Notes under the pieces: generated by a model
The model's input: only the letters and a program-made list of their open reading frames with translations
Database searches by the model: none
Told to the model about the DNA's origin: nothing
Made by a program: the position numbers and the translations under genes
Source of the DNA: Escherichia phage MLP3
Sequence record: OK148440
Reading direction: 5' to 3' (one strand)
Length of the DNA: 64,000 nt
In this document: positions 19,199 through 53,948 of the stretch, one piece after another
Layout of the letters: each line of letters starts with the position of its first letter
Numbering within the stretch: the stretch's first letter is position 1

Positions 19199-19242
19199 AA
19201 CTCCTTAATATATCAGTGTACACTAAGGAGTATACATTATGT

Positions 19243-30357: not shown

Positions 30358-30383
30358 TACAAATTCCTTTTTGTTTAATTTAA

Positions 30384-31619: not shown

Positions 31620-31621
31620 TT

Positions 31622-31852
31622 TTAGATACCTTTTAGTTTAAGAATTTCGTTACGACAGGATTGAATTTTAGCTTCGATTGCCCAATACTCAGCGAACATT
31701 TCGTCTTCTTGGTCATCGCTTGGAGAGTCGATTAAGTTAAAAGCAAACGGATACAGCTTTCGCTGCTCCGTTACCAGTTGTTGAAGTCGGAGTTGTTGAT
31801 ACTCCAGCATTGTCAGGTGAGGCTTAGCTCCCTTGCTTGACATGAGGCTCAA
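31622..31852 (-). CDS. hypothetical small protein (TTG or internal ATG start)
   Basis: ORF only. Confidence 0.35.
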   Translation of the reverse strand: MSLMSSKGAKPHLTMLEYQQLRLQQLVTEQRKLYPFAFNLIDSPSDDQEDEMFAEYWAIEAKIQSCRNEILKLKGI

Positions 31853-32057
31853 CTTTAATCCCCTTCATTTTAACATAGTCAGCCAACACGTTATTGATAA
31901 CGGTTGGAAAAGGGATTTCTACTGGAGAGTCAACCAGCTTCCCAATACCTTCTTGCATCCACTTCTGGATTGCTCGGAGGTTATCACATCCTGTGCTTGT
32001 CATCGGAATACGGCGGGTAGTTACCACGTTATCCAACATCAGTTTACGAACTTCCAT
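31824..32057 (-). CDS. hypothetical small protein
   Basis: ATG. Confidence 0.4.
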   Translation of the reverse strand: MEVRKLMLDNVVTTRRIPMTSTGCDNLRAIQKWMQEGIGKLVDSPVEIPFPTVINNVLADYVKMKGIKVEPHVKQGS

Positions 32058-32068
32058 AACTATACCTC

Positions 32069-34102
32069 TTAGTGTTTACCTTTACAGTAATCTGAATTAC
32101 AGATCACCCTGTTTTCTTTGTTCAGTGAGCAAGTTTCTGCATCACGCCACGGAATTTGTTTATAACAAACTGCACAAAACCCAATTGAAGTCCAGAGGGC
32201 TTTTGTAAACTCAGCTGTTCGTTGTCCATCGTAACTGACAACTGTTTTTCGGAGAGAGGTTGACTTTTCTGGAAATGTCTCCGCTTTCTCAGCGGGTACC
32301 TCCTTTGGGGCATTCTTTGGACCATAAACAGAGATGGCATAAGTATCACCACCACGTTTTTCCAAATACGAATTAGGAACATCTGCAAGTGTGATGTCCC
32401 CTGAACGTTTTGCTGAGCTGACCATTACAATCATACGGCTAAGCATACGTTCATCAACACGAACAGCTACTTCAGGACGACGTGGGTTGGTTGTGTCCAC
32501 TGCTTTAGTCCAAATATAACCCTCAGACAGCGTAACATTCTTTACTTTGTCTTTGATTTCTTTGGAGCAGATATAACAAACATCTTCACCACGAAGTTTA
32601 CTCATTTCGTTGTCAAACTCGAAATCAGTCTTGACTTCACCACAGATAGCACATACACCCAAAGGCACATCTTCTTCCTCTTCAGAGGTTTTAGATAACG
32701 CTTCGAAGCATTCTGGATGCCAGTATGCCTGATAAGCAAACACAGCCTTACGAGCATCTTTCCAGTCAATGTGCTTATCACAACCACCACAGTCACCATG
32801 AGAGTGAGATTCCCAGAACTTACGAGTGACTTCTACACCATTCTTAGTGATGAAGGAGTCCTCTGCATCAAAAGGGATATCATCATCAAAATCAGCAGTA
32901 GTGCTTTGAGGCTCCTTATCTGTAGCATCAACAAACAGCCCTGAAGTTAGTACGAGGCGAATCATACTGTCCACTTCGGAGATACAAGCAATCGTCCCGC
33001 GATATACTACCTTTGGGTTTTCAAGAGCCTTAAGATATTCATCTTTGGCTACGTTGTGAACATCCCCTTCGACATACTCTTGAGCTTTATCATCGTAGAT
33101 GTAACCAACCATCTTACCACGATCTGTGTTGTTATAAGCATGGAACTCGTGAGGAATAATATCCACACGACCATCACGACGATAAGGAAGACCACGATCG
33201 GCAGCCAGTTTGTTCTGGTCTTCAATCGCTTTACGACGACGAATGTCTCCGCTTGTCACGCCGGGCTTGTCGTCTTTGTTTCCGTAAATGTCGCTTGTGC
33301 TGCTGCTTGATTTGTTTGTCTGTTGGTTCTGATAAAGAGAGGAGTTCGAGTAATAGCCGCCCCAGCGACTCGTTACCGTAAAAACCGGAAGCGTGTGCTC
33401 CACCTCTTGAACCAGAGTCATACGACTGTTAGACACATCAAAGATATACTCAGTTCCCACTTTACATTCGAAGTGGTCATTGATACGGTTCTTATGGGAC
33501 TTAGAACGCTCTAAAATCCACATAAGCATAGCTTCTTCAGAAGCTCCAAACCAATCCAAACCACAGCGGGCTAGGTGGAAAGGACGCTCATCATTACGGA
33601 TAATGTGAAGTGTGTTGTCTTTAGCATCATGCCAAATCAAAGTGAATGCACCATCCAGTTTTTGGATAGTCTCTGCTGCTCCAATGGTGTTAATTGAGTG
33701 GCAGATGTTTTCACTATCAACTTCGAAACGCTTACTGTCAGGAAGGAGATCTTGATCTAACAGGGTTCCATTATGAACCAGAGTAATATCCCCGTGAGTA
33801 AATGGGTGAGCATTTCGAGCATTGACAGCCCCACGAGTGGCATGTCGGCTGTGACCAACAATCCACGAAGGAGGAACTACGTAGTTCGTAAGCCCTTTGG
33901 TAATATTTGTATATTCTGTCTGGAGCATAAAAGCATAAGAAGGAAGAGCTTCTTTATAAGAGAAGACTTGCTTTTCACCTTTACGCTGACCAAACACACC
34001 AGTTGAGTGCTGTCCACGGAAAACACCAGCATACAGAAGTTGGTTGAAAATGTCCAAATCTGCTGAGGTCATGTTGCCGCCAGCTAATACGATACCACAA
34101 AT
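32069..34102 (-). CDS. class-II (Ntn) glutamine amidotransferase-like protein with C-terminal Cys-rich zinc-ribbon region; probable non-ATG (AUU) start
   Basis: CGIVLAGG...VFRGQHSTGVFG matches GlmS/PurF N-terminus; the Cys codon lies 9 codons upstream of the first ATG, after an in-frame TAG, with AGGTGG 8 nt before ATT. Confidence 0.6.
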   Translation of the reverse strand: MCGIVLAGGNMTSADLDIFNQLLYAGVFRGQHSTGVFGQRKGEKQVFSYKEALPSYAFMLQTEYTNITKGLTNYVVPPSWIVGHSRHATRGAVNARNAHPFTHGDITLVHNGTLLDQDLLPDSKRFEVDSENICHSINTIGAAETIQKLDGAFTLIWHDAKDNTLHIIRNDERPFHLARCGLDWFGASEEAMLMWILERSKSHKNRINDHFECKVGTEYIFDVSNSRMTLVQEVEHTLPVFTVTSRWGGYYSNSSLYQNQQTNKSSSSTSDIYGNKDDKPGVTSGDIRRRKAIEDQNKLAADRGLPYRRDGRVDIIPHEFHAYNNTDRGKMVGYIYDDKAQEYVEGDVHNVAKDEYLKALENPKVVYRGTIACISEVDSMIRLVLTSGLFVDATDKEPQSTTADFDDDIPFDAEDSFITKNGVEVTRKFWESHSHGDCGGCDKHIDWKDARKAVFAYQAYWHPECFEALSKTSEEEEDVPLGVCAICGEVKTDFEFDNEMSKLRGEDVCYICSKEIKDKVKNVTLSEGYIWTKAVDTTNPRRPEVAVRVDERMLSRMIVMVSSAKRSGDITLADVPNSYLEKRGGDTYAISVYGPKNAPKEVPAEKAETFPEKSTSLRKTVVSYDGQRTAEFTKALWTSIGFCAVCYKQIPWRDAETCSLNKENRVICNSDYCKGKH

Positions 34103-34179
34103 TTTCTAATCCACCTGAAGGGTAAACCCTTTCATCTAATTAACCTTTAAATGCGCCCTGTATAAGAGCGCCCGTTGTG

Positions 34180-35280
34180 TTACAGCAGTCGTTCTAATTG
34201 CATTTCCAGATGGTCTGGAATATAACCAGTGACGTTATCATCACTGCTACCTGATTCACGCATCAATGCAAACATGTGACGAATTTCACGAACCGTTGCG
34301 ATTCGAGTGCTTTCAATCTGAGGGGTGTAGTAGGTCATGATCTCTTCGTAGACACTGTTGGCATTACCGCGCACATATCCCAAGAAACCATAGAAGTCAT
34401 TCATATCACGTAAGTTGATAAGGACTTCACCATCAGGGCCAGTCTGTTGCACACGAACACGACCAACCAAAGTTACAGATTGCTCACGACAGAAGAGAAT
34501 ATCACGAGCAAGACGATACCCTTCAGTGAGATCACTGTCTCTTGGAGTATAGTCTAGGGGTAGATGTTGAATCATAGGAGCGAAGCGCAGCTCATTCAAC
34601 TTCTCAACATAAGCTTCATTGTCTAAATCTGCATATTCAACAGCAAGTTTCTTGAGAACCAAGAAGCGGTTGACCAGATTCAGAAGTTGGCTCTTTTTCC
34701 ACTTCGGCTCTGAGATACGGAACTCAACAGAACCAAATTGAGATAGAGGCAAAAGATTAAGGGAGGTATATTTATCCCAGCTATTAACAAGAGAGTGGAA
34801 GAAAGCTTCCCCGTCTCGGTTGAACGCTGACGAAGCATTCATAACTTGTGCTTGAACGACAGCAAAAGCTGGACAGAAGTTGCTACGATAGCGATGGTAT
34901 CCAGAACATTTGAACATCATCTTTTCATAGAACGTCCATCCAAGAATAACTTTCTTAAGGATATTACTATCAGCGTCACGCATATCCATATGAACGTGAG
35001 TGGAGCAGCGCCAAGTTCCCTCGGCTCCAGAATCCTGTACTGCTTCACTCAGATTGTTAATAGCACGAAGTAATTCTTCACCGTTGTAAGGTCGTGCACA
35101 TACTAATTCACAACCATCACGAAGAGAGCCATCTTCAGTACAAACCCACATATCAGCGTCAATGTCAGTTGTACCTTCGACTTCTAACTCAATACCAACA
35201 CCACACTGAAAAGCAATACTTGGATGCGGTTCAGATAAGCGAGGGTTACGGTATCCAAAAACTTGTGCTACGGTTGTCAT
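34180..35280 (-). CDS. amidoligase (glutamine-synthetase-like COOH-NH2 ligase family)
   Basis: VGIELEVEG and STHVHMD motifs. Confidence 0.55.
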   Translation of the reverse strand: MTTVAQVFGYRNPRLSEPHPSIAFQCGVGIELEVEGTTDIDADMWVCTEDGSLRDGCELVCARPYNGEELLRAINNLSEAVQDSGAEGTWRCSTHVHMDMRDADSNILKKVILGWTFYEKMMFKCSGYHRYRSNFCPAFAVVQAQVMNASSAFNRDGEAFFHSLVNSWDKYTSLNLLPLSQFGSVEFRISEPKWKKSQLLNLVNRFLVLKKLAVEYADLDNEAYVEKLNELRFAPMIQHLPLDYTPRDSDLTEGYRLARDILFCREQSVTLVGRVRVQQTGPDGEVLINLRDMNDFYGFLGYVRGNANSVYEEIMTYYTPQIESTRIATVREIRHMFALMRESGSSDDNVTGYIPDHLEMQLERLL

Positions 35281-35903
35281 AATGATTCCACCAACTCTAC
35301 ATTATATGATGACAGGTCTGAAGAAATATGCTTGAACTTCTCCAGAAGGTTTAAAGATTGACGACCATTGTCGCCATAACCAGCTTCAAGAAGCACGTTT
35401 CCAACGTAAGCCCCTTTGTAATAAACTTTTCCATCGACAGGATTGATATAGATGAAACGAGTAACCAACCCTTCAAACTCTGGATTAAACAGGTTATACA
35501 CCAAATCACCCGGAATCGAACGTCCGAGAGAAGGTGGAGTACCACGAAGTTTATTCCCCATCAAGCCTTTAGCTCGCTGACGAACAGGGTTGATATGGGT
35601 CCAGCTCACCATGTTATTACCATGCTGAAGGTATCCTACATCTGGAGACTCCAGAATGAGGCTGTGATCAAACACTGGGATATTACTAACAATCTGACGT
35701 TCAAACTGACCTTCAGAGTTTTTAGTCCAGCGTTCCGCCTCAAACACTAAAGACATTTCAGCGTCGTGTGAGTAGTCGTCAATATCAAAGTTACCTTGCT
35801 GACGAACATCAAGCACATATAGAGGGAGGTTTTTACCATCAGGTGATCGCTGAGCAATCCATGTTCCACAATAATAGTGTTGAAAATCTCTTAACAAGCT
35901 CAC
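35277..35903 (-). CDS. hypothetical protein in ligase cluster
   Basis: GTG start with AAGGTGA RBS; 208 aa. Confidence 0.45.
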   Translation of the reverse strand: MSLLRDFQHYYCGTWIAQRSPDGKNLPLYVLDVRQQGNFDIDDYSHDAEMSLVFEAERWTKNSEGQFERQIVSNIPVFDHSLILESPDVGYLQHGNNMVSWTHINPVRQRAKGLMGNKLRGTPPSLGRSIPGDLVYNLFNPEFEGLVTRFIYINPVDGKVYYKGAYVGNVLLEAGYGDNGRQSLNLLEKFKHISSDLSSYNVELVESL

Positions 35904-35912
35904 AATATCACC

Positions 35913-36719
35913 TTATACAATCTGGAGTTTAGAGGAGAATTTATCCGCTTCTTTAACATCGTTACTGTTGATGATGTTGTGAAGCTTTTCAATTGGAAGG
36001 CGAGAGTGAAGTGACATCAATACTTCCATATCACAGCCTTGAACAACCTTATCAACTTGCTCATAAACAAACTTGCGGGTTGACTTCTCGCCAATCCAGA
36101 AGTTAGAAAGAGAACGATATTCAATACCGTAATCTTTGTAGCGAATGGCAGAAGCCTTTCCGTATAACTCTTTACGACGAGTATCTTTATCCATGATCAC
36201 AGCTGGCAAGGACAGGAAGTAATCACACAACACACCCAACATCATTTGAGTCTGACGACTAATTTCCAGCGTACCAGTGACGCCAAGGTGAACATGACCG
36301 CCAGCAGTACGCAGACCTTTGTCTGTCGCTACTGGAGATGGGTTTTTCTGACCAGTGAAGGCGTTGAAATCAGGAGTACAACCAAATACAAAGGCTGACG
36401 GATGGAAAGATTCCAGCTCTTCTGAAGTGAACACATGAGAGCTAATCCCAAGTGCTGCCTCCATGCCACGTTCATTGAGAACTTTGTTAGTCAGATCAAT
36501 ACCACGCTGAATGTTATCATTAAACGCTTCAAACCCTTTCTGTGGGTTAATATCGAACTCGGCCAGAACGTTGTCTTCTTGAAGACGAACATCAGGGGCC
36601 AGATCAATTTTGTTGTCTTTAGAGCAGCCCAGCTTACCAGCCACAGAGGTGATAATACCAGAAGCAGTACGAACAAACATTTCAGGGTCAGAACCAATAA
36701 GGAAAGCACGCTTAGTCAT
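35913..36719 (-). CDS. amidoligase-like protein (second copy, divergent)
   Basis: FLIGSDPEMF and AGGHVHLGV motifs; ATG at 36719 with GGAG RBS (table start GTG at 36764). Confidence 0.45.
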   Translation of the reverse strand: MTKRAFLIGSDPEMFVRTASGIITSVAGKLGCSKDNKIDLAPDVRLQEDNVLAEFDINPQKGFEAFNDNIQRGIDLTNKVLNERGMEAALGISSHVFTSEELESFHPSAFVFGCTPDFNAFTGQKNPSPVATDKGLRTAGGHVHLGVTGTLEISRQTQMMLGVLCDYFLSLPAVIMDKDTRRKELYGKASAIRYKDYGIEYRSLSNFWIGEKSTRKFVYEQVDKVVQGCDMEVLMSLHSRLPIEKLHNIINSNDVKEADKFSSKLQIV

Positions 36720-37662
36720 TGTAATACTCCACGAGTTCATCAAAAAGGGAAACAACACGAGCACCAGCTTCTTCTGGTGTCATTGAGGAAGGTACTGCTT
36801 GCATCAGTCGTTCGATAAAACTGCGAACAGTAATTCTGTCCATACGCTGATCTAATACTTCTCTCTTGTGACCTGCACAAGTTGACCAGAGACGCAACCA
36901 CTCACTCATACTCTCGTAATGGTCAGGGTCTTGGTCACGACGACGTGCCATACGACGGAGAACTCCATCATTGTGGTTTCGTACATAACCATCTCGGTTA
37001 TCATCAACACCGAACACATTCTGAACCCATACGTTTTCAGAAAATTCATCAGTGGTGCAAATTAGTGGCAGAAATGCAATTGCACTCATGTCACCATCAA
37101 AATAAGTCGCTGCTGACTCGTCAGTTGAGTCTACGTCATTACTATAACACCAGCGACCAAAGAAGTTACGACTTAAACCAGCTAAGCGTAGAGCTAAACC
37201 GATTCGTTGTCGCTTAAGCAACTCTTCCTTGTCTTGTACGCCTTCCTGAAGGAACTCCATTCCATTAAAATCACCATCCAAATAGCTACGGATGGTCATT
37301 AGTCCAGTAAACACCTTGTCTGCTGGATGGTTTCGAAGGTTCACGGCAATGGAGTTCACCGAAGTGACAGAGAACATATCTTTATAGCAAGACATTGAGT
37401 TAAAAATATCTGTTGCTTCAACTAAAGCTCTTTCGATATCTTTAGCTGGCACGCCATAAAAATTGTGAGGCCAGAAGTTAATAACTTCAATTTCTGAAGT
37501 TCTATCACGAAGGCTTGTTCGGTTACGACTTTCACCGTTAATGTCTGTAACAGAATACATGTGCATACAGTTAAAAGTACCAAAGCAAGCTCTTCCTTTG
37601 AACACTGACTCACCGAAATCCTCTGCCGGTGTTACCGGAGCAATCGATGCGGAGATTGACAT
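36712..37662 (-). CDS. hypothetical protein in ligase cluster
   Basis: ATG; 316 aa. Confidence 0.45.
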   Translation of the reverse strand: MSISASIAPVTPAEDFGESVFKGRACFGTFNCMHMYSVTDINGESRNRTSLRDRTSEIEVINFWPHNFYGVPAKDIERALVEATDIFNSMSCYKDMFSVTSVNSIAVNLRNHPADKVFTGLMTIRSYLDGDFNGMEFLQEGVQDKEELLKRQRIGLALRLAGLSRNFFGRWCYSNDVDSTDESAATYFDGDMSAIAFLPLICTTDEFSENVWVQNVFGVDDNRDGYVRNHNDGVLRRMARRRDQDPDHYESMSEWLRLWSTCAGHKREVLDQRMDRITVRSFIERLMQAVPSSMTPEEAGARVVSLFDELVEYYND

Positions 37663-37670
37663 ATTCGCCT

Positions 37671-38888
37671 CTATTTATTAAAGAATAATTTTTCCATAAT
37701 GGTTTCCCACTCTTCTGAGGGGAGGGTTGAGAACCCGTTTCCGTGAAGCCTGTTTGTCATGCAACTAATAATATTGTACATGTTGTAGCTTCGGGTGGAT
37801 TCTGTTCCATTGTTCCAGTTATAACCGAAAACAATTTTATCGAAGGAGGTTTTATCCGTAGTTACTTCTCGGATGAACTCAACCAAGAGCGATTTCTCTG
37901 TGATGACCGCACGTTCACCATCTGGCAGATTACAATACTGAGGAAGAAGGATTGGTAAGAACATCGAATTGTTCACTCGACAATCACGAACACCTTCACT
38001 GCGATAGATTAGGCTTGAGAAGTCTTCATCACGCAGGTGTCCTTCACCTTCAGTGTATTCACACTGTCGCCATTTGGTCTGGCGAGGTTCAATCATTGTA
38101 CTGCCAACGCCTACTGTATACAGAGACGCTTGGAAGATACACGAGTCGTAATCATTCCCTGTTAAAGCAACTTGCTCATTGCCGAACACATCCACTGAAG
38201 AGTTAATCAGTCGGCTGAATGCAAGAGAGGCTAGTGGAGACCAACCTTTCTTATACATCTTGTTCAGCATTTCATACACAGCAGATTTTTCATCATCTGT
38301 ATAGAATGTACGATTCAGCATCAGATAGAACAGAGCGCGATCAGCAGGACAACCATCAGTACAAACACCCATGAATCCTACTTCATGCCATACCAGACAT
38401 GAGTCAGAATCTTTATCCATGAATGCTTCAAAGGCTTCCATTACAGCCCTGTCAGTAACATCAGGACGGTTGTTTTCTTCTGCCCATGTTTCTACATGAG
38501 AAGGAGGACGAGGGTCTCCATTCTCCACCCCTTCGCGGAAATATTGAGTGGTAATAGGCTTTTTATCACCATAACGTTTTACACCATAAGCGGGAAGGTG
38601 TGTACCAGAGTTCCAGATGTACTTAATTTCGGACATAGGCATCATGTTTTCGAGAACGTTCTCTTCAGCAGTGCCTTGACGAACCATCATATTTTCACTC
38701 CACACCTTAATGCGGATATTCCAGCCGTAGTTGCTGTCATACGTGTTATAATAATCAGGATCACCATCTTCATCTTCATCATAATCACCACCCTGATAGT
38801 AACCTGCTTTCAGGAAACCATAACAAGGAGGCCAGACGGTTACAACATCATCTGATTCTTTCCAGCTTTGAAGTGTTACAGGGAACAT
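37671..38888 (-). CDS. hypothetical protein in ligase cluster, acidic N-terminal segment
   Basis: ATG; 405 aa. Confidence 0.45.
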   Translation of the reverse strand: MFPVTLQSWKESDDVVTVWPPCYGFLKAGYYQGGDYDEDEDGDPDYYNTYDSNYGWNIRIKVWSENMMVRQGTAEENVLENMMPMSEIKYIWNSGTHLPAYGVKRYGDKKPITTQYFREGVENGDPRPPSHVETWAEENNRPDVTDRAVMEAFEAFMDKDSDSCLVWHEVGFMGVCTDGCPADRALFYLMLNRTFYTDDEKSAVYEMLNKMYKKGWSPLASLAFSRLINSSVDVFGNEQVALTGNDYDSCIFQASLYTVGVGSTMIEPRQTKWRQCEYTEGEGHLRDEDFSSLIYRSEGVRDCRVNNSMFLPILLPQYCNLPDGERAVITEKSLLVEFIREVTTDKTSFDKIVFGYNWNNGTESTRSYNMYNIISCMTNRLHGNGFSTLPSEEWETIMEKLFFNK

Positions 38889-38899
38889 CTTTTACCTCT

Positions 38900-39262
38900 T
38901 TACTCTGCTACCAAAAGGCTCAGAGATTTGCGAATGTAGTCAATACTACGGAAGTTTCGATAATTCTCTTGGAAGCGCATCTTTTCAAACTCTGCTTCCT
39001 GAAGCTCTACCTCTGCTGCTTTATATCCTGATAAAGCTAAACTTACCACATCCTGAGGTAAGGTATTACGACGGCGAATAAGATATTTATTCGCTTTTAG
39101 TTTACCTTGTGCACGAGCCATTTTGGCCTTTGCCGCCTTGATACCATGAGAAATCCAAAGCAGTTGCTGTTTCAGATCTTCCTCATCCATACCACCTAAA
39201 TCATTTGCTACTTTATGCAGCGTAGACAGGTTCACATGGCCTTTAATGGGGCGTAGGTTCAT
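38900..39262 (-). CDS. hypothetical protein
   Basis: ATG; 120 aa. Confidence 0.45.
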   Translation of the reverse strand: MNLRPIKGHVNLSTLHKVANDLGGMDEEDLKQQLLWISHGIKAAKAKMARAQGKLKANKYLIRRRNTLPQDVVSLALSGYKAAEVELQEAEFEKMRFQENYRNFRSIDYIRKSLSLLVAE

Positions 39263-39529
39263 AACTTCTCCTGTTTGTCACATTGATTGGTTAGCCAGTT
39301 GTAAGACCCACTGTTGTTCTTGCTTAACTCGCAAGATGCAAAAGAGTACATCCTGACAAACCCCACAGTGGCTAAGCAAATAAAGATTGCTGCCAATAAG
39401 AATTTAGCTTTCAACTTATTATCCATACAACCTCTTCTTTGAGCTTAAAAAAGGACTCTCCTAAGAGAGCCAAGCTTTAAGGCCAATTAAATAGATATCA
39501 CCCAATATCTGTGGATAACCTGCTCTTAA

Positions 39530-39670
39530 AATATTCTATCCGACGGATGTTCGAGGATTATTCCTCTCCCTAGCATCGGCCCCATACGGGAAAGATTAAA
39601 TTAAGTTTAGGTTAGTTGAGCCAGAATAGCTCACATAGCCCTCTGATACTCACAAGGGCTATAGATGTTA
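39530..39670 (-). repeat. conserved structured noncoding element, copy A (candidate regulatory RNA)
   Basis: about 70 percent identical over about 140 nt to copy at 44800-44957; conserved hairpin AUAGCCC-15 nt-GGGCUAU. Confidence 0.4.
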
Positions 39671-39916
39671 CTCTGTGGCTCCGTCGAATCGGAGGATTGC
39701 TGCTGGAACAGGGTATACTTCCAGATCTTCATCCAGTCGGTATAGATGCCCTGTACTTAAATTTACAGCTGTTACTGGCTTAGAGTGGCCTCCAGCCTGT
39801 ATGGAAGGAACTCTGATAAAGAACTCTTCTGGATATTCAACAGAGTGGAACACACTTCCTGAATAAAGATCTTTTATTTTAGAAGTTTGTTTAGGAGTTT
39901 TATCAGCAATTTTCAT
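39668..39916 (-). CDS. small protein, L.DL.PG.VF paralog family
   Basis: shares MKI...L.DL.PG.VF...NL.TG...V.PV with 41037, 41307, 44955, 45180 genes. Confidence 0.45.
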   Translation of the reverse strand: MKIADKTPKQTSKIKDLYSGSVFHSVEYPEEFFIRVPSIQAGGHSKPVTAVNLSTGHLYRLDEDLEVYPVPAAILRFDGATE

Positions 39917-40149
39917 TACAGACCTTTCTTAGCACGATCTTTGGCAGTTTTGCCAGTGCGGATACGATGGGAAACATTAACCAGCTCGCCACCTTCGACG
40001 ATGGTTACGCTTTTGTTTTTCGCAATATCAAACACAGTTTTCTCTGTGCCGCCCAGACGAATCTGTTTAGGCTCACTGTGGGTCTGAGTTGATTTAGACT
40101 GGAACTGGAACGGCTGACGGATGGCATCAATTGCGCTAACTTTAGACAT
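39916..40149 (-). CDS. hypothetical small protein
   Basis: ATG; TAATG overlap. Confidence 0.4.
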   Translation of the reverse strand: MSKVSAIDAIRQPFQFQSKSTQTHSEPKQIRLGGTEKTVFDIAKNKSVTIVEGGELVNVSHRIRTGKTAKDRAKKGL

Positions 40150-40177
40150 GTTTTTATTACCTTACATTAAAGAGAGA

Positions 40178-40591
40178 TTAAACAACGAATTGGAACGCTT
40201 CGTATCCAAACTTATATAAGAAATCGTGTTTGAACTTCGTTACACGACCACGGTCACGGAAAGATTTCAGACGGTTACTGAACCCAGCCATCGGCTCAGG
40301 GTCAATAGGACTACGAATCTTCATAGCTACAGAGTGCAGCTTGAAGCGCTTACCAGTGCTACATGCCATCATCACATACTCCATACGAGTAGTCCAGATG
40401 TTAAGCACCATACTTGTTTTCTCCGCTGACCAACCAGTCTTGCGGGCGATTTCCTTATGGATGTTAAGCTCCAAAGGAAGTGGGAATTGCTTGTTGAATG
40501 AAGCCGGATAGAGTTTGACCAGAAGATCAATGTTTTCTTTATACGTTAAGTAAGCTAATTTCTTGCTTACGTTGGGGAATTTCCCAGACAT
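40178..40591 (-). CDS. ProQ/FinO-domain-like RNA-binding protein
   Basis: LYPASF...PLPLELNIHKEIARKTGWSAEKTSMVLNIWTTRMEY follows the ProQ N-terminal FinO-domain pattern. Confidence 0.4.
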   Translation of the reverse strand: MSGKFPNVSKKLAYLTYKENIDLLVKLYPASFNKQFPLPLELNIHKEIARKTGWSAEKTSMVLNIWTTRMEYVMMACSTGKRFKLHSVAMKIRSPIDPEPMAGFSNRLKSFRDRGRVTKFKHDFLYKFGYEAFQFVV

Positions 40592-40789
40592 TTTTGAAGC
40601 TCCAAAACAGCGCCGAAAAGAGAGGCGTCATAGTAGCTAAAAGGAGGAGAGAAGAGGGCTTATTTACTTGCCTTTTTCTGTCCGTTAATGTACCAGATAA
40701 CTGAACCGTCAGGCTGTCGTTGACCGAAGCCTTTCAAGTTAACCATTTCTTCTTCAGAGTAGGCACGTTTTCTCACTGATTTTCTCCTG

Positions 40790-41047
40790 TCAGTAGAAGG
40801 TGTGTGTAGAGTCGTCGTTCATAGATAACCAAACGAAGAAGACAATCACACAGAAAGCAATAACACCGAGAATTGCAAGGATTATAGTGTTAGCTAATGT
40901 GATATCTAACACGCTTTGCAGATACATAAAGAACTGTACGACACCACATACCATCAGCACAACCCCAACGACAATGAGGAGCCAATATGTGCAGAGAAGG
41001 ACTGCATCTAATAGTGATACATACTTTGGATGATCTTTATGTCTCAC
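40790..41047 (-). CDS. small multi-pass membrane protein
   Basis: hydrophobic helices; start not verified. Confidence 0.4.
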   Translation of the reverse strand: MRHKDHPKYVSLLDAVLLCTYWLLIVVGVVLMVCGVVQFFMYLQSVLDITLANTIILAILGVIAFCVIVFFVWLSMNDDSTHTFY

Positions 41048-41303
41048 TGATCTTTTCCACTAAATCCAGAGTTGCTGATTCAAATACAACACCAACTACC
41101 ATATTAGGTGCCATATTACGAACGTATCCGCTCTGCATAGACACGGCCCGAGAGTATTCAGAACCGTTAGAACTTTTGTTTACCTTCATGTAAAGGGTTT
41201 GCTCTTTATCTTCTTTCAGAGTAAAGAAAGAGCCGGGAAGAAGCCTCTGAACAGTCAGAGGGATATCTGCAACATGAGTCTTATTGATAGTAAGAACTGT
41301 CAT
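41037..41303 (-). CDS. small protein, L.DL.PG.VF paralog family
   Basis: paralog alignment. Confidence 0.4.
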   Translation of the reverse strand: MTVLTINKTHVADIPLTVQRLLPGSFFTLKEDKEQTLYMKVNKSSNGSEYSRAVSMQSGYVRNMAPNMVVGVVFESATLDLVEKISET

Positions 41304-41306
41304 TGC

Positions 41307-41561
41307 TTATTCCTTAATAGTTGCTTCAGCTTTAATAGGAATAACAGCAACATCTTTACGAGGTGCTGTCGCTCGACCTGTGTTAAGGCAGGCTACAAGT
41401 CTATGCTCGTCCGCACCCTTGATGCAGAGTCGAGTTGAGAACTCAGTAGACAGCAAGATGTACAAATCATCATCTTCACTGTTAGGGTACATGAAGCAAT
41501 CCCCAAGTCGTAAAGCACTGAGAGGTATTGCACTCTTACCTGCTGGTTTATTAACTTTCAT
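41307..41561 (-). CDS. small protein, L.DL.PG.VF paralog family
   Basis: paralog alignment. Confidence 0.4.
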   Translation of the reverse strand: MKVNKPAGKSAIPLSALRLGDCFMYPNSEDDDLYILLSTEFSTRLCIKGADEHRLVACLNTGRATAPRKDVAVIPIKAEATIKE

Positions 41562-41837
41562 TTTACCACCTTTAGTTATGGACCAATTTATGAGAGAACT
41601 CTCGGAAGAATGCTTTCATAAATAGGGGGAGGGGACGAATCCTCCCATATCCTATTAATTAATATTGCATGTAAGATCTAACAATTCGATGCTGTAGTGG
41701 ATAGCGTAAAACGCTTACCGGCATTAAACCCAGCCCATGAGGGGCTTATGTGAATAAAATGCTCAACATTGAGCGGTTAGTTGATAGGAGATCTGAAGTC
41801 CTATCTCAAAGGACTCTCGTAAGAATCCTTCACGATA

Positions 41838-42104
41838 TTACTTAGTAATAAAGACTGTCACCTTATCCATTACCCAGCCTATCAGCATAAGGAAAGGTAA
41901 GAAGAGGATAAAGATCAGCATAAAAGGCCAGAAGAATATCACCGTCCAAATAGAGTATTCATCAGGCTTACCACTCCATGAGGAATGGAAGAAGTTGTAG
42001 AGTGTATTGGTTTTGAAGCACCATTTAACTACAATGGCTGCCAACCACCAACCAATAACATAAATCAGGAGGACATACGCTGCTGTAACCATTGACCGTT
42101 CCAT
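41838..42104 (-). CDS. small membrane protein
   Basis: hydrophobic helices; start not verified. Confidence 0.4.
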   Translation of the reverse strand: MERSMVTAAYVLLIYVIGWWLAAIVVKWCFKTNTLYNFFHSSWSGKPDEYSIWTVIFFWPFMLIFILFLPFLMLIGWVMDKVTVFITK

Positions 42105-42319
42105 TGATAGTTGCGAGTTACCACGTTTCCGTGGATAAGAAAGTGCTGGCGGCGAAGGATATCTTTAACGTTGTAATAGGCAGCGTTACCGAGATGGCCT
42201 TCTTTGATAAGCCAACGAAGATTACGAATATCAACCAACAGCATTTTTACTTGCTGTTGGCATGAAGTTTGAGCTGCTGTTTCAAGTAGAGCTTTCGTAT
42301 CAGAATAATGACCGGACAT
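42065..42319 (-). CDS. hypothetical small protein
   Basis: ORF only; overlaps neighbour. Confidence 0.3.
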   Translation of the reverse strand: MSGHYSDTKALLETAAQTSCQQQVKMLLVDIRNLRWLIKEGHLGNAAYYNVKDILRRQHFLIHGNVVTRNYQWNGQWLQQRMSS

Positions 42320-42320
42320 A

Positions 42321-42653
42321 TCACCACTCCTTACCTGTTGTTGTCACAGAGCCACCACACAGCTCACCACGGGAGATGAAGTCATAACGTGACCAATCAC
42401 CTTGGGTAGCCATATCACGATCTGCATAAGCTTTCTCGTCAACAGCACCGCCATTGGAACAAGAAGCACCGGCATAACGTATATCAACCTCACCACTAGG
42501 AATCTTCTCCCCGCTATGCCAACGGGAAACACAGACACCTTCTACAGATAATGCACACCATCCATCAGGACGATGCTGTACACAGCCTGTAAGAGCTACA
42601 CAGGCGATAAAGATACAGGTTAAGGTAATTACACCACCCCAACTCATAAGCAC
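42321..42653 (-). CDS. Cys-rich lipoprotein
   Basis: signal peptide with lipobox-like LTGC; start not verified. Confidence 0.4.
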   Translation of the reverse strand: MLMSWGGVITLTCIFIACVALTGCVQHRPDGWCALSVEGVCVSRWHSGEKIPSGEVDIRYAGASCSNGGAVDEKAYADRDMATQGDWSRYDFISRGELCGGSVTTTGKEW

Positions 42654-42787
42654 CTCCTATTTGATTTGGTGGACTATCTGGAATCGAACCAGAAGCTCAC
42701 TAAGAAAGCAATTCCCACTGTTATAAAAGCACTTGCCTCAACAGGGATACACTAACTCTGGTGCCGTACCCATACTAGCCCTAAATG

Positions 42788-42863
42788 TGGTGCACCCTAC
42801 AGGACTCGAACCTGTAACCAACGACTTAGAAGGTCGCTGCTCTGTCCGTTGAGCTAAGGGTGC
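42788..42863 (-). tRNA. tRNA-Arg, anticodon UCU
   Basis: hand-folded cloverleaf: acceptor GCACCCU/AGGGUGC, D-stem GCUC/GAGC, anticodon loop CUUCUAA, T-arm ACAGG-UUCGAGU-CCUGU, encoded CCA. Confidence 0.85.
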
Positions 42864-42872
42864 TGAATTTGT

Positions 42873-43082
42873 TTAACTGAAGATACGCAAGGCCACATCG
42901 TGACCGATATGACCGGGAACTTTATGCTGTTCTATTTTCAAACAGTGTTTACAGATACGAGATACACGAGATTCTTTTCTCTCTACTGGAGTGTCTTTAG
43001 CGTGAGTGATATGTAAGTTTTCAGTGACCACCCATTCATGTTTACATCCAGAATCTTCGGGCTTTTTCTTACGAAAGAACAT
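42873..43082 (-). CDS. small zinc-ribbon protein, paralog family
   Basis: CKHEW...CKHC pairs; similar to two tandem neighbours. Confidence 0.4.
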   Translation of the reverse strand: MFFRKKKPEDSGCKHEWVVTENLHITHAKDTPVERKESRVSRICKHCLKIEQHKVPGHIGHDVALRIFS

Positions 43083-43090
43083 AACACCCC

Positions 43091-43255
43091 TTAGATCAGA
43101 TCTGTTTTCTTGTGCTTACCACACACTTTACAGCGGGAATAGATACGCAACCCCTGTCGCTCTCCTCCAGCAAGACGATGTGTAACCTTCAATTCATAAG
43201 TAGAAAGATCTTCCCACTCATGGAAATGAAAGAGACGCTTGAACCATTTAATCAT
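43091..43255 (-). CDS. small zinc-ribbon protein (54 aa), below the ORF-track cutoff
   Basis: my translation MIKWFKRLFHFHEWEDL...CKVCGKHKKTDLI; paralogous to both neighbours. Confidence 0.35.
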   Translation of the reverse strand: MIKWFKRLFHFHEWEDLSTYELKVTHRLAGGERQGLRIYSRCKVCGKHKKTDLI

Positions 43256-43264
43256 AATGATTCC

Positions 43265-43426
43265 TTAGATTACATCACGATGACTAACATCACCACACAC
43301 CTTACACTGAATAACGTAACGTGTGCCCTTGTCATTGTTCCCATCTGAATCTGTATAGACCAGAGGACGGGTGTTAATAATCTTCCAATCATGACAATGG
43401 AAGACACGCTTTAGCCATTTAATCAT
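43265..43426 (-). CDS. small zinc-ribbon protein, paralog family
   Basis: MIKWLKRVFHCHDW...CKVCG; internal ATG chosen by paralog alignment. Confidence 0.4.
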   Translation of the reverse strand: MIKWLKRVFHCHDWKIINTRPLVYTDSDGNNDKGTRYVIQCKVCGDVSHRDVI

Positions 43427-43427
43427 A

Positions 43428-43685
43428 CTAAGCACACGCCGGTAATTCAATTAACTGAGGAGTACGACAAGGGCCATCCTCATACACACCTACTAGTGTT
43501 GGCATGTAAGGCCCAGCGCACTGGTATTCATCGAACAGTTCATTGTAAGTAGGCTTCCACTTCCAAGCCCACACATAACCCATTCGATCAATGGCAATGT
43601 AACGAGTGTTCAGAGGAACCTGCATCATCACATCACCAACTGCTATTACTTTCGTAATAACTACTGCTCGGAAGTTTGTCTTCAT
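43428..43685 (-). CDS. hypothetical small protein
   Basis: ORF only. Confidence 0.4.
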   Translation of the reverse strand: MKTNFRAVVITKVIAVGDVMMQVPLNTRYIAIDRMGYVWAWKWKPTYNELFDEYQCAGPYMPTLVGVYEDGPCRTPQLIELPACA

Positions 43686-43990
43686 GACTTTGCAGCCTCC
43701 ATCATTTTATTCATTTTAGCCACACCTTTACGGATAAGAGGCATAAATTCATCAGCCAGTTCAGTGGATAAAAGTTTAAGCCCGCCTGATTTAATACCGT
43801 TCACCGCCTTCTCAACTTCATCCGACAGCAATGTCATTGTTAACCACGGGGATTTTATTACCACAGTAAAGCCTGGTTCATACCGCGAGTGACTGTAGGT
43901 GAACTCTAAATGAGTAACACCGGGCATCTTAGACATTTGAGCACGGATATCTACATTAGGGTTGCAGCGAGTTGAAGATGAAATTGTCAT
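43682..43990 (-). CDS. hypothetical small protein
   Basis: ORF only. Confidence 0.4.
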   Translation of the reverse strand: MTISSSTRCNPNVDIRAQMSKMPGVTHLEFTYSHSRYEPGFTVVIKSPWLTMTLLSDEVEKAVNGIKSGGLKLLSTELADEFMPLIRKGVAKMNKMMEAAKS

Positions 43991-44238
43991 GGCGCTTTAA
44001 TCTCAATCTGAACGTTGACGACGAATACAGTATGGTTTGCACTGTACACTGAAGTGCCTATGATTGGCTTATCATCACTGAGGATTTCAACAGCGTGCTC
44101 AAGGTTAATCTTCAGATGAAGACGCCCTGATTCCATGAAGAAATCACCAGCACGTATCTCACCGAACTTAGCTGGCACACCGATAGAGGGTATCAGTATG
44201 TCAGTGCGACCTTTACGGTCAAATAAACGATTGAACAT
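43987..44238 (-). CDS. hypothetical small protein (internal ATG start)
   Basis: table ORF start would overlap terminator; ATG at 44238 with GAGAGG RBS. Confidence 0.35.
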   Translation of the reverse strand: MFNRLFDRKGRTDILIPSIGVPAKFGEIRAGDFFMESGRLHLKINLEHAVEILSDDKPIIGTSVYSANHTVFVVNVQIEIKAP

Positions 44239-44280
44239 ATCAACCTCTCTTGTTAGTTTAAGTAAGAGTTGTCCCTTAAT

Positions 44281-44312
44281 TAAAACAACAAAGGCCACCC
44301 CTAAGGGCAGCC
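44281..44312 (-). terminator. hairpin terminator
   Basis: GGCUGCCC-UUAG-GGGUGGCC with two G-U pairs, then U-rich tail. Confidence 0.5.
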
Positions 44313-44318
44313 TCTTAT

Positions 44319-44534
44319 TTAAGCGCAAGCACTACGCAGTTTGTTATTCAAGAAGCGATCTTCTGCATTATACAGGAATGCATAGAACAACTCTTTTGCT
44401 ACATCCCGATCGCAATTGAGACATTTAGAGATCTGTAACAACAAACCATCACGACTATTAGGATGATCAATTATCGCAAGACGAATAATCTCACGAATAC
44501 CAATGTCATGCTCAGCCGCCATAGAACCAATCAC
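44319..44534 (-). CDS. hypothetical small protein
   Basis: ORF only. Confidence 0.4.
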   Translation of the reverse strand: MIGSMAAEHDIGIREIIRLAIIDHPNSRDGLLLQISKCLNCDRDVAKELFYAFLYNAEDRFLNNKLRSACA

Positions 44535-44799
44535 CCTGACGTTTACGAATGTTAGTTGTCAGACGAAGCATGGCAGACTCAATCTTCAAAGCACCATTTG
44601 CTACTGCATCCATACGTTCAGGACGGTTCATACGTTTGGTTGTCTTTTTCATAATGTTCTCTCTTTATTGATGGAGGCAGGATTGCCAGTTAATATAAAG
44701 GGAAGCCCTACACGTTAAGGCTTCCGCTTGTACAAACTGTCGAGAACTCTCTACCCCTAGAATGTTCTCTATCCCAAACCGATACATACCCCTACATAT

Positions 44800-44957
44800 C
44801 GGAATGCCATTCGAAAATTAACAGGTTTTAGTCTATCACCGGATGTTTGAGACAAGTCTCTCCCTAGCGGTGAGCCATATGGCGTTGAGATTATAGTTAA
44901 TTGAGGAACACCCTCACATAGCCCTCTGATAAACACAAGAGCTATAAGTCGATGTTA
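44800..44957 (-). repeat. conserved structured noncoding element, copy B
   Basis: homologous to 39530-39670; overlaps stop codon of 44955-45179 gene. Confidence 0.4.
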
Positions 44958-45179
44958 CTTGTTGGTTAGTCGTGCGTTAGGTACAGGTCTGACTACAGTC
45001 GATTTACACTCAGAATCACGCTTACCTGTATAAAGGTTAACAAAATAACTTTTGTTTTCACCATAACACGCAGTACGCATGTAGTATTGAGTTTCATTGT
45101 AGTTAAACTGGAAGACTTCACCCGGATTTAGGTCTCCGAGAGTTACAACCTCTGGCGTACTATCAATGTCAATCTTCAT
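44955..45179 (-). CDS. small protein, L.DL.PG.VF paralog family
   Basis: ATG; paralog alignment. Confidence 0.45.
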   Translation of the reverse strand: MKIDIDSTPEVVTLGDLNPGEVFQFNYNETQYYMRTACYGENKSYFVNLYTGKRDSECKSTVVRPVPNARLTNK

Positions 45180-45410
45180 TTAACCACCAATATTAGTCAC
45201 TTGAACATCAAATACAGGGATAACTTCATGATGTTCCTGTAACTGGAATAGTGTTCCCTGACGAAGACCAACCACACGATGCATATCATTCAGGCAGGTG
45301 TCTGTCTTTAGATAGAGGTGTTCAGAGTTAGTTGGTAGACGGAATACATCACCCGGACGTAGATCGCTGAGTTTTTTAGTAACAACTAAAGATGGGAGAT
45401 TAATTTTCAT
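45180..45410 (-). CDS. small protein, L.DL.PG.VF paralog family
   Basis: paralog alignment. Confidence 0.45.
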   Translation of the reverse strand: MKINLPSLVVTKKLSDLRPGDVFRLPTNSEHLYLKTDTCLNDMHRVVGLRQGTLFQLQEHHEVIPVFDVQVTNIGG

Positions 45411-45598
45411 TTGATTAACACCAAATCAGTACGACGTTCGAAGGAAGGGGAGGATTCACCATTCCACTGAACAAGATAACAGAGAACACCATCAATCGTT
45501 GTTCTCCGACGAATAACACCTGTAACAGTTCCACCAACAAGGCGAACGGTGTCGCCAACGGTAAATTTAACCTTTGATCGCATCTCCTGTTTCCTCAT
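45407..45598 (-). CDS. small beta-rich protein
   Basis: ORF only. Confidence 0.4.
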   Translation of the reverse strand: MRKQEMRSKVKFTVGDTVRLVGGTVTGVIRRRTTIDGVLCYLVQWNGESSPSFERRTDLVLIK

Positions 45599-45872
45599 TC
45601 TGGCGTTTAATTTCTTCAGTGAGTTGTTTGTTTAGATCTTGAATACGCTTAATCTCCCAACCCAAAGAAGCCAAACGATCGTTACGTGCTTCGATTTGTT
45701 CCTGCATTTTGAGTAATTTGGAACGAACATCAGCATTAAAAACTTCTTCTTGCTTAAGAAGGAACTCGTAACGACGCTTCCAGCTTGCTGATTTATTTCT
45801 TAAAATAATAAACCCTAGAGTAGAAACCGTTACAGTGAGTACGAAAAGGAACTTATAAACCTCTAAAGACAT
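45567..45872 (-). CDS. membrane-anchored coiled-coil protein
   Basis: N-terminal TM helix then coiled coil; start not verified. Confidence 0.4.
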   Translation of the reverse strand: MSLEVYKFLFVLTVTVSTLGFIILRNKSASWKRRYEFLLKQEEVFNADVRSKLLKMQEQIEARNDRLASLGWEIKRIQDLNKQLTEEIKRQNEETGDAIKG

Positions 45873-46073: not shown

Positions 46074-46460
46074 TCAGTCACGGGAGCTATTATTGAACAC
46101 TAAATCACCACAATACATCGGATTGGTATACCACTTTGGCACCCCTTCGCTCTTACTCTGAAAGTATGTACCACTGTATAAAGGCACATAATCTTTCTTC
46201 AGTGCACGCCTTGCAAGCCGCTCGCTTTCTCTGATTGATTTCTTTATCAGAGGGTTATCATCACGAATTAGCTTTACATAACGCTTAAAAGGTTTCTCCT
46301 TCTTTAATAGGACGGGTATCCACTCGAACTGGTTTCGTTGATTTATAACCTGCTCGGCAGTCAGTTTTCGTTGTGACATTCTGTTTATTACGGTATCCGC
46401 TACTAATGCTTTGCAAGCGGTTGGCTGATTCCCTGCCTCATAATAAATAGTCAATGTCAA
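46074..46460 (-). CDS. SleB-like cell-wall hydrolase (endolysin candidate), start codon unclear
   Basis: IYYEAGNQPTACKALVADTVINRM resembles the SleB/Hydrolase_2 N-terminal motif; no in-frame ATG or GTG. Confidence 0.4.
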   Translation of the reverse strand: MTLTIYYEAGNQPTACKALVADTVINRMSQRKLTAEQVINQRNQFEWIPVLLKKEKPFKRYVKLIRDDNPLIKKSIRESERLARRALKKDYVPLYSGTYFQSKSEGVPKWYTNPMYCGDLVFNNSSRD

Positions 46461-47291: not shown

Positions 47292-47501
47292 TTAATCAAT
47301 TAAACTAAACGATTTCCAACTACGTGTAATTGCTACCTTTTCGCCATCAAAGAGAACACTTACAGAGATCAGTTTACCGCGACAACTGGATACCGTGGTA
47401 ATACGTCCGGTTAATGCCTTACCTTTATTCAGGTAGTGATAGCGGACACGACGTCCTAACAAACGAGTAGCTTTCTTCTCTAACGTGCTTAAGCTGGTCA
47501 T
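47292..47501 (-). CDS. hypothetical small protein
   Basis: ORF only. Confidence 0.4.
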   Translation of the reverse strand: MTSLSTLEKKATRLLGRRVRYHYLNKGKALTGRITTVSSCRGKLISVSVLFDGEKVAITRSWKSFSLID

Positions 47502-53919: not shown

Positions 53920-53948
53920 TCACTCTCGTTTATCAGAGGAGAATAAAT

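Follow-up and report, generated by a model that had tools for sequence, protein, structure and literature searches.

Genes and features at the locus

The stretch of DNA analysed here, referred to below as the window, comprises 64,000 nucleotides (nt) of Escherichia phage MLP3 (sequence record OK148440), and the subject of this report is a structured noncoding element that it carries in two copies on the minus strand, copy A at 39535-39670 and copy B at 44832-44957. By similarity the window is affiliated with the IME267/SU7-like Suseptimavirus (Gordonclarkvirinae): over positions 39200-40200 it shows 100% identity to Escherichia phage IME267 and 95-99.9% identity to SU7-like phages. Elsewhere the identity to IME267 is slightly lower, at 98.9% for copy B and 96.3% for a nearby ProQ-like protein, so that the window is closely related to IME267 and not the same sequence. 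All genes between about 20 and 52.7 kb of the window lie on the minus strand, which is the sense (mRNA) strand of the element. A previous sequence-only reading had described a duplicated segment of about 140 nt with a common core, and this was confirmed by core search, by alignment and by a covariance model. On the minus strand the 34-nt core TATAGCCCTTGTGAGTATCAGAGGGCTATGTGAG is found at 39630-39663 without mismatches and at 44913-44946 with three, where none would be expected by chance, and the 18-mer ATCAGAGGGCTATGTGAG inside it has the same letters in both copies. Covariance model R1, run on the 64-kb window, returned exactly two copies, scoring 127.9 bits for copy A and 116.7 bits for copy B, and no third. 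The element is about 125-136 nt long. Mean column identity in the pairwise alignment of the two copies is 75%, and conserved blocks are found also outside the first hairpin, among them GCTAGGGAGAG and CTC(G/A)AACATCCG on the minus strand.

Both copies begin at a TAA codon, which in copy A (39668-39670) is the stop of the early open reading frame (ORF) 39668-39916 and lies within a conserved leader GUAAC, and in copy B (44955-44957) is the stop of ORF 44955-45179. The overlap with a stop codon therefore stands as first described, but the paralogy proposed for the upstream genes is weak here, their products sharing 33% identity (pairwise E=2e-4), and does not extend to relatives, where quite different genes end at the element. 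As had been noted, no ORF follows either stop codon: the untranslated spacers measure 241 nt (39427-39667) after the copy A ORF and 302 nt (44653-44954) after the copy B ORF. The claim that the noncoding core is better conserved than the adjacent proteins also holds, at 75% for the RNA core against 33% for the proteins. The whole unit reaches beyond about 140 nt as far as terminators at 39471-39447 and 44725-44692. In copy A a terminator scan and RNAalifold place a hairpin at 39471-39454 with a 7-bp stem, followed by U6 and extended by pairing of UUAAAG with CUUUUUUAA; this terminator is conserved in E. coli and Salmonella phages and is annotated in SU7 and 7-11. In copy B the scan gave a terminator-like hairpin at 44725-44701 followed by a weak U-tract, CUUUAUAUU, and in NJ01-type relatives the corresponding hairpin has no U-tract.

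Distribution among phages

By blastn, 104 phage records contain copy A and 98 contain copy B; almost all are Escherichia or Shigella phages of Kuravirus and Suseptimavirus, and these phages (about 100 Gordonclarkvirinae) carry both paralogs. A single A-like copy, with 70-76% identity, is present in Salmonella phages 7-11, SE131 and pSal-SNUABM-01 (Grimontviridae; Moazamivirus). When 36-47 kb of the window was compared with these Moazamivirus phages, the gene for a COOH-NH2 ligase and element A were all that could be aligned. Pattern scans were extended to IMG/VR, metagenomes and GTDB genomes, and metagenomic relatives were added to the set. A diverged copy (64 bits) lies on a 48.7-kb contig, L044 (JBOFGJ010000684.1), binned with a Flavobacterium metagenome-assembled genome (MAG). 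Proteins from an 8-kb stretch of L044 gave no match to window proteins; its 446-aa protein is 41% identical to a protein of Citrobacter phage CVT22 and has relatives in Klebsiella phage Klyazma and Erwinia phage Pecta (Zobellviridae, Citrovirus). Klyazma and CVT22 themselves have weaker syntenic copies, scoring 30 and 21 bits, respectively. The element was found also on contig L046 (CALKAR010000070.1), binned into a Peptococcaceae MAG. By content both contigs look like enterobacterial phage DNA, L044 Citrovirus-like and L046 Kuravirus-like, so both MAG assignments are probably binning artefacts. Two IMG/VR pattern matches (L012 and L016) were dismissed as chance, one of them lying inside an HNH gene.

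Throughout the family the upstream ORF, whatever its product, stops 4-20 nt before the first helix, mostly at a conserved U(A/G)A; the membrane protein gene gp093 of SU10 is one example of an unrelated gene that ends at the element. An Rfam search, which had been suggested as a check, gave no matching family: Rfam 15 at the gathering threshold found only tRNA in the whole window, and at E<=10 on 38800-45600 the best overlapping model was STnc100, with 21 bits against a threshold of 47 and confined to the terminator region. Nor is the element mentioned in the literature searched on phiEco32, SU10 and 7-11. The element thus represents an undescribed RNA family common to three phage families, with no match to any described family tested.

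The same module of genes is found downstream of copy A or its homolog in Gordonclarkvirinae, Moazamivirus and Citrovirus. It encodes large unknown proteins, an HNH protein, the COOH-NH2 ligase/amidoligase, a glutamine amidotransferase and an ATP-grasp protein, and it occupies about 30000-38900(-) in the window, 1-6689 in L001, 399-3203 in L008 and 6312-14194 in L048. The RNA and the amidoligase module may travel together.

A covarying fold with an invariant internal loop

Helices were derived from RNAalifold and from pair counts, with shuffled sequences and slid partners as controls. Among 37 distinct sequences 95.9% of cells were paired, compared with 83.1% after shuffling and 31-48% with slid partners; for nine cross-family sequences the values were 96.1%, 77.9% and 32-44%, and in each set 13 of the 24 pairs had changed on both sides. 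The cross-family covariation score was 0.50, against 0.17 in shuffles. Four helices, H1 to H4, and an invariant 7x7 internal loop in H4 are therefore supported by strong covariation. The hairpin that the sequence-only reading had drawn in the minus-strand core is H1, the first of at least four conserved helices, and the C-to-U change pointed out in copy B does yield a U-G pair. Such pairs are informative about the strand: in the 37-sequence set they occur in H1 of 12 sequences and in H4 of 21, and they would become C-A mismatches on the opposite strand, so the fold belongs to the minus, mRNA-sense strand.

H1 of copy A (39635-39662; AUAGCCCUU / AGAGGGCUAU around a variable loop) has 100% of its cells paired, with four pairs changed on both sides across families. 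H2 (39618-39632) has the stem GAGC..GCUC in copy A. The covariance model misaligned H2 in some rows, and it was read from the sequences themselves: its stems are unrelated between lineages (GAGC/GCUC, GAGU/ACUC, GAGUUA/UAACUC, GAGG/CCUC, GGGA/UCCC, UAUAC/GUGUA), yet the hairpin is present in each. As an alternative to H2, its 5' half can pair with the GUAAC leader in copies A and B, in Klyazma and in L044, that is, in four of the five lineages compared, the alternative pairing not being seen in CVT22. An A/U-rich linker (39591-39617) follows, in which UAACCU and UCUUAA provide the 5' strand of a long-range helix (UAACCU/AGGUUA and UCUUAA/UUAAGA) that closes H3 and H4 into a junction, with compensatory changes among nine A-type sequences folded with RNAalifold. 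H3 (39581-39590; CCC GUAU GGG) shows GC, CG and UA swaps and is 100% paired.

H4 (39540-39579) consists, by pair counts and covariation, of an outer stem, the 7x7 internal loop and an inner hairpin. The loop, formed in copy A by CUAGGGA (39567-39573) and GAACAUC (39546-39552), reads 5'-CUAGGG(A/C)-3' / 5'-(G/A)AACAUC-3' and is invariant in every copy scoring at least 64 bits. The one variable position on each side changes jointly, to give A-G, C-A or A-A, as expected for a non-canonical pair stacked on the inner stem. In the more diverged Klyazma and CVT22 copies opposing loop positions turn partly Watson-Crick, which suggests that the loop is a continuous non-canonical helix.

The core of copy B (44836-44945) has the same plan, with H1 at 44918-44945, H2 at 44903-44915, a linker, H3 at 44874-44883 and H4, containing the same 7x7 loop, at 44836-44873. 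B-type copies add two further covarying hairpins, H5b (44779-44802) and H6b (44742-44769), both with UAGGGGUA loops and with compensatory changes between Suseptimavirus and Kuravirus. A B-type long-range helix (AAUUAAC/GUUAAUU) can be drawn in most B copies and is missing from the phiEco32-type ones; it is proposed here tentatively for copy B.

A very recent duplication with uniform divergence does not account for the similarity of the two copies, because the duplication is old, both paralogs being present in Kuravirus and in Suseptimavirus, and because divergence has been non-uniform, with covarying stems and invariant loops. The element represents a structured RNA family of ancient origin, whose two paralogs lie on the early transcript and whose non-canonical loop is invariant. 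Covariation, strand-specific U-G pairs and conservation in three phage families all bear out the structural constraint originally suspected on the minus-strand transcript, and there is high confidence that the sense-strand RNA structure is functional.

Such hairpins could serve in RNA processing or stability, being recognised by RNase III, RNase E or a phage nuclease so that early mRNA is cut and protective 3' structures are left behind. The intergenic position of the element, which begins right after a stop codon in every lineage, its several stable, internally looped hairpins, a single-stranded, A/U-rich linker such as RNase E sites typically have, and the presence of more than one copy per genome would all fit. 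However, sites of the T7 type call for a coaxial RNA duplex of about 20 bp that includes an internal loop. H4 offers six plus four Watson-Crick pairs, about ten in all, which seems short for RNase III, around a 7x7 loop that may itself stack as non-canonical pairs. Moreover, 14 loop nucleotides invariant across phage families far exceed what such sites need, and processing leaves unexplained the complementarity of copy A to the leader of the host gene nrdD, described below. This explanation is considered rather improbable.

The junction also invites comparison with a ligand- or translation-sensing leader, a riboswitch-like attenuator in which the long-range helix and H3/H4 junction would be the sensor and a ribosome at the conserved stop codon would toggle the pairing of leader and H2. 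A three-way junction with invariant loop nucleotides, followed by a terminator and then a ribosome-binding site, has the required layout, H2 and the leader-H2 pairing are mutually exclusive and both possible in four of five lineages, and copy A precedes the amidoligase/glutamine amidotransferase module in all three families. But the genes immediately downstream are inconsistent (a small membrane protein, an endolysin, a 46-aa basic protein), sensor and terminator do not overlap and are separated by a long and variable distance (68 to about 170 nt), and no Rfam riboswitch matches. A riboswitch-type antiterminator was looked for and rejected, the candidate AGAG/CUCU pairing amounting to 5-6 bp and not being conserved. 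A sensing leader is accordingly very improbable.

Several known motifs were compared by eye and set aside, their defining nucleotides being missing or freely covarying: a type I-F CRISPR-repeat mimic (for H3), the kink-turn, the sarcin-ricin/loop-E motif and the 11-nt tetraloop receptor. In copy B, the loop of H1 and the 3' strand of its stem are made up of a 10-mer, TTATCAGAGG, that occurs six times in the window (0.13 expected), at 13058-13067(-), 44923-44932(-), 46244-46253(+), 53930-53939(+), 53964-53973(+) and 54283-54292(+), and a variant, GTATCAGAGG, lies at 39639-39648(-). The 10-mer is often the 3' half of a small hairpin, for example GTCCTTTATCAGAGGAC or CCTCTGAT..ATCAGAGGG, and three of the sites cluster where the rightward gene block begins; a recurrent hairpin bound by protein and a DNA operator are both conceivable roles.

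The 3' arm of copy A and the host nrdD leader

The most informative part of copy A is a stretch lying just outside the segment that had first been delimited. When copy A was searched against 5426 complete E. coli genomes it matched one locus, 32 of the 34 nt at 39501-39534(-) being identical to DNA directly upstream of nrdD, the gene of the anaerobic ribonucleotide reductase; with a shorter query the match was 29/31, and it was found once per genome in 5423 of the 5426 genomes. A neighbouring 4-kb stretch used as a control gave a host match only at tRNA-Arg. In its sense orientation the phage RNA corresponds to the strand opposite nrdD, and this 3' arm is complementary to positions -10 to -43 of the nrdD leader, adjoining the GGAG at -9 to -6. 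The predicted duplex of arm and leader has an energy of -55 to -60 kcal/mol, compared with -20.7 +/- 3.8 for shuffled arms; these values come from local RNAduplex runs, runs on long sequences having given meaningless global pairings. FNR sites have been published for nrdD at -33.5 and -64.5 (PMC10425943), and an FNR box is present at 1726-1739 of the E. coli nrdD locus (L051). Together these would put the start of transcription some 177 nt ahead of the AUG, and therefore the target within the transcribed 5' untranslated region (UTR).

The leader core CUGUGGAUAACCUGUUCU is common to E. coli and Klebsiella-type genomes, and the E. coli phages match the E. coli-specific flanks too. The arm is the same in every E. 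coli-phage A-type copy inspected at full length, while the sequence flanking it varies. Phages 7-11 and SE131 keep 19 contiguous nt complementary to this shared E. coli/Klebsiella core, and one metagenomic relative keeps about 26 complementary nt. Complementarity of either copy to the phage's own genome is at chance level, at most 13 nt. Copy A accordingly possesses two features of trans-acting small RNAs (sRNAs), a U-tailed Rho-independent terminator and a segment complementary to the vicinity of a target ribosome-binding site; the U-tract of copy B is weak or absent. Regulation of nrdD by a phage sRNA is not reported in the literature searched. RNAduplex adds a second, interrupted pairing, between 39545-39555(-) in the conserved 3' loop and stem of H4 (CAUCCGUCGG) and positions +8 to +18 of nrdD (CCGCAUGUGAUG, codons 3-6), which may be due to chance.

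The same arm contains, at 39510-39518(-), the perfect DnaA-box 9-mer TTATCCACA, and this raises the alternative that the element acts at the level of DNA, either as a captured host DnaA-box region serving as binding site, roadblock or origin component, or as a recombination boundary for module exchange. No other perfect box occurs in the window, the Salmonella phages have kept this one, two such boxes lie in the host nrdD leader, and the genes upstream of the element differ between phages with the junction falling exactly at its 5' edge. Against this, neither copy B nor the Citrovirus copies have a DnaA box, one box in 64 kb is the chance level (45 of 100 shuffles), and the host similarity runs 12 nt past the box on each side; in addition, the compensatory changes and the U-G pairs demonstrate that selection has acted on a fold of the single-stranded sense strand. 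A DnaA-dependent origin or box cluster was rejected, there being a single TTATCCACA in 64 kb, and a DNA-level role as a whole is judged highly doubtful. In E. coli the two perfect boxes of the nrdD 5' leader have the same orientation and lie about 80 bp apart (L051 1513-1521 and 1594-1602); in Klebsiella the proximal box is conserved and the promoter-distal part of the leader is not. DnaA control of nrdDG finds no mention in the literature searched.

Operon context and possible terminator read-through

Strong sigma70-like promoters were found at 49873-50225 (three) and at 52684-52711 (one), the same arrangement as that described for SU10 and phiEco32 (PMC4281155). Intrinsic terminators lie between these promoters and copy B, at 48033-48006 and 46539-46520, and another follows copy B at 44315-44290. 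Downstream of copy A about 20 kb hold no convincing promoter or terminator until a gp36 motif at 19231-19239, and this block appears, from the placing of these signals, to depend on read-through. A scan for sigma70 -35/-10 consensus sequences gave no site within either element, and neither contains the gp36 promoter motif (tAATGTAtA / TAATGTATA-like) within one mismatch. The 7-11 promoter motif GTAAtg-16-aCTA was compared by inspection with the conserved GTAAC and discarded, the spacing not fitting. For 7-11 itself, its authors concluded that an undefined antitermination strategy must exist (PMC8948821).

The main rival to a trans-acting RNA is therefore cis-acting antitermination or attenuation, in which the nascent RNA, alone (as with HK022 put or Bacillus EAR) or with a phage factor (as with lambda nut and N), modifies its own RNA polymerase; read-through of adjacent and later terminators would then set immediate-early against delayed-early expression. 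The gene organisation has much that would suit it: two paralogous copies lie in one long early operon whose strong sigma70-like promoters are confined to 49.9-50.2 and 52.7 kb and are followed by several intrinsic terminators, copy A is 70 nt upstream of a canonical terminator, the 20 kb beyond are without a recognisable promoter as far as the gp36 motif, and a strategy of this kind has been postulated for 7-11. An invariant non-canonical loop would fit binding to a conserved host machine, and the variable distance to the terminator hairpin (68 to about 170 nt) fits a processive mechanism, not one of riboswitch type. On the other hand, both copies are located downstream of the strong terminators at 48033-48006 and 46539-46520 and therefore cannot protect the whole operon; there is no similarity to put in sequence or structure, and no boxA or boxB; the possible antiterminator pairing of 5-6 bp is not conserved; and the 34-nt complementarity to nrdD is left without an explanation. 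Antitermination on its own is thus thought unlikely, although it deserves serious weight.

The early region encodes many proteins of 60-110 aa that form an apparent family of diverged paralogs with the pattern L..GD.F...Y.K....V.L.TG....V.PV (41037-41561, 43987-44328, 44955-45598, 39668-39916 and 47292-47501); four members in the window gave no Pfam match at E<=0.001. A separate series of small proteins with EEENE at the C-terminus is encoded at 1978-5668 of L044. The first gene after copy B, 44512-44652(-), encodes a 46-aa basic protein (MKKTTKRMNRPERMDAVANGALKIE...), and this gene and its 5' UTR hairpin GGCAAUnnUGCC are conserved throughout Kuravirus and Suseptimavirus. ORF 46074-46460(-) resembles, by eye, a SleB-type cell-wall hydrolase (IYYEAGNQ...ADTVINR compared with IYTEAGGEG...ADTVITR). 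In the Salmonella phages a SleB-type hydrolase gene sits directly downstream of the element; if the resemblance is real, gene order around the element differs between families. Between copies A and B there is a phage tRNA gene at 42791-42863(-), with about 82% identity to the tRNA-Arg genes of the host; its homologs in SU7 and phiEco32 are annotated as tRNA-Arg.

A possible function for the two RNAs

The interpretation that is tentatively preferred, with somewhat less than even confidence, is that of a modular early phage RNA that joins a conserved scaffold to a variable arm and a terminator, the arm of copy A being an antisense regulator of nrdD. Both elements would be the untranslated 3' ends of early leftward transcription units, giving rise to terminator-ended RNAs. 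The conserved 5' domain would be a scaffold binding a conserved host or phage macromolecule, for which an RNA chaperone (ProQ, Hfq), a ribonuclease or RNA polymerase are candidates, and the lineage-specific 3' part would confer specificity; in copy B the place of the nrdD-antisense segment is taken by the two hairpins with UAGGGGUA loops. An abundant copy A RNA would pair with nrdD mRNA next to the Shine-Dalgarno sequence, most likely blocking translation or triggering cleavage of the mRNA, and the outcome would be altered anaerobic deoxynucleoside triphosphate synthesis during infection.

Several points weigh against a trans-acting role. The case for it depends on copy A, because copy B has no match at E<=10 in the same 5426 E. 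coli genomes and a U-tract is missing from some of its relatives. Parts of the arm are taken up by pairing within the phage RNA itself, namely by the long-range helix and a further helix, H5, and the arm overlaps the perfect DnaA box, so the host similarity could reflect capture at the DNA level. Repression of the sole anaerobic ribonucleotide reductase brings no obvious benefit to the phage, four to five helices with invariant non-canonical loops are unusual for a base-pairing sRNA, and the literature search turned up no transcriptome of a Gordonclarkvirinae infection.

The ProQ/FinO-like gene to which the sequence-only reading had drawn attention is genuine. The ORF at 40178-40591(-), 0.5 kb upstream of copy A, encodes a FinO/ProQ domain (Pfam 27.3 bits against a cut-off of 27, E=3.7e-6), and proteins of this family bind terminator hairpins (PMC9977716). 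It is not, however, a constant companion of the element. With tblastn at E<=1e-3 a ProQ-like gene was found in about 21 SU7/IME267-like records, in 7-11-like Salmonella phages (28-31% identity) and in Erwinia and Aeromonas phages, and was not found in Kuravirus (phiEco32, SU10, NJ01), whose members carry both copies; among carriers of the element it is confined to SU7/IME267-like and Moazamivirus phages. On this pattern of co-occurrence ProQ was rejected as an obligatory partner, and the protein may be an accessory partner, not a defining one.

It is tempting to combine the two leading ideas in a dual RNA acting in cis and in trans. Nascent H1-H4 would bind elongating host RNA polymerase, in the manner of put or EAR but unrelated to them in sequence, and let early transcription pass terminators, and the transcripts that do terminate would persist as stable RNA and, through an exchangeable 3' arm, silence a host gene, which for copy A would be nrdD. 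Such a combination is improbable as it stands, but if true it would be the 'undefined antitermination strategy' of 7-11 and the phiEco32-like phages and a new class of phage RNA in three phage families.

Regulatory RNAs of virulent phages are very poorly known, and this family is well supported and ready for experiment. Among phages with only distant protein similarity the element is the most conserved DNA of the early region, and it is located where unexplained terminator read-through was postulated. The host target proposed for copy A, the anaerobic ribonucleotide reductase, is of importance in the gut, the habitat of these phages, and silent under aerobic culture in the laboratory. Whether antitermination RNA or antisense RNA, the element would add a mechanism of host takeover for phages held in therapy collections.

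Comparison with known systems

The elements resemble the sRNAs that derive from 3' UTRs and end at a terminator (CpxQ, SroC, RaiZ), and the ProQ/FinO ligands FinP and RocR, in lying at the 3' end of a coding transcript and, for copy A, in having an intrinsic terminator. Further resemblances to this group are a conserved segment of copy A with complementarity to the region where translation of an mRNA begins and, in some phages, the proximity of a FinO-domain gene. The phage element is much larger and more structured than these RNAs, with four to five helices and the invariant 7x7 loop; its complementarity extends over 34 nt compared with about 10 nt; and, unlike them, it is encoded by virulent phages and is known here from sequence alone.

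Phage and prophage antisense sRNAs such as DicF, which acts on ftsZ, and svsR (PMC12803456) provide a precedent for phage RNA with extended complementarity to a host mRNA leader. These are mostly prophage genes with their own promoters and an architecture of the Hfq type, whereas the present RNA is a 3' UTR of a virulent phage's early transcript and has a large scaffold. The RNase III sites of T7 early mRNA are likewise repeated intergenic hairpins with internal loops on a polycistronic early transcript; compared with them the helices here are shorter, the conservation is far stronger and there is a multi-helix junction.

Among antitermination systems, lambda nutL and nutR also occur in two copies, one of them following the first small early gene and closely preceding a terminator. 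The phage element is an order of magnitude larger than nut and lacks boxA and boxB, and no N-like protein was identified: on sequence inspection neither a lambda boxA (CGCUCUUA-like) nor a boxB with a GNRA-like pentaloop was present, the only GCUCU strings being the 5' halves of A-type terminator stems. The HK022 put sites (putL and putR), Bacillus EAR and the antitermination RNAs of conjugative elements provide a parallel for two paralogous structured RNAs in early operons upstream of terminators; in those RNAs, too, helices with bulges and non-canonical pairs matter, and EAR-type elements lie within long operons. The put RNAs are characterised by terminator read-through in cis that needs no additional factor and depends on the zinc-binding domain of the RNAP beta' subunit. 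A search of the HK022 immunity and early region (26-31 kb) with model R1, filters off, gave a best score of 6.9 bits (E=2.1) and no homology to put. At about 130 nt and four helices the phage element is larger than put, which has about 70 nt and two helices, and unlike put it is not promoter-proximal, two strong terminators preceding it. The kinds of RNA to which the element is likely to belong (phage regulatory RNA, 3'-UTR sRNA, antitermination RNA) are all known; its architecture, its distribution over three phage families and its nrdD arm are new.

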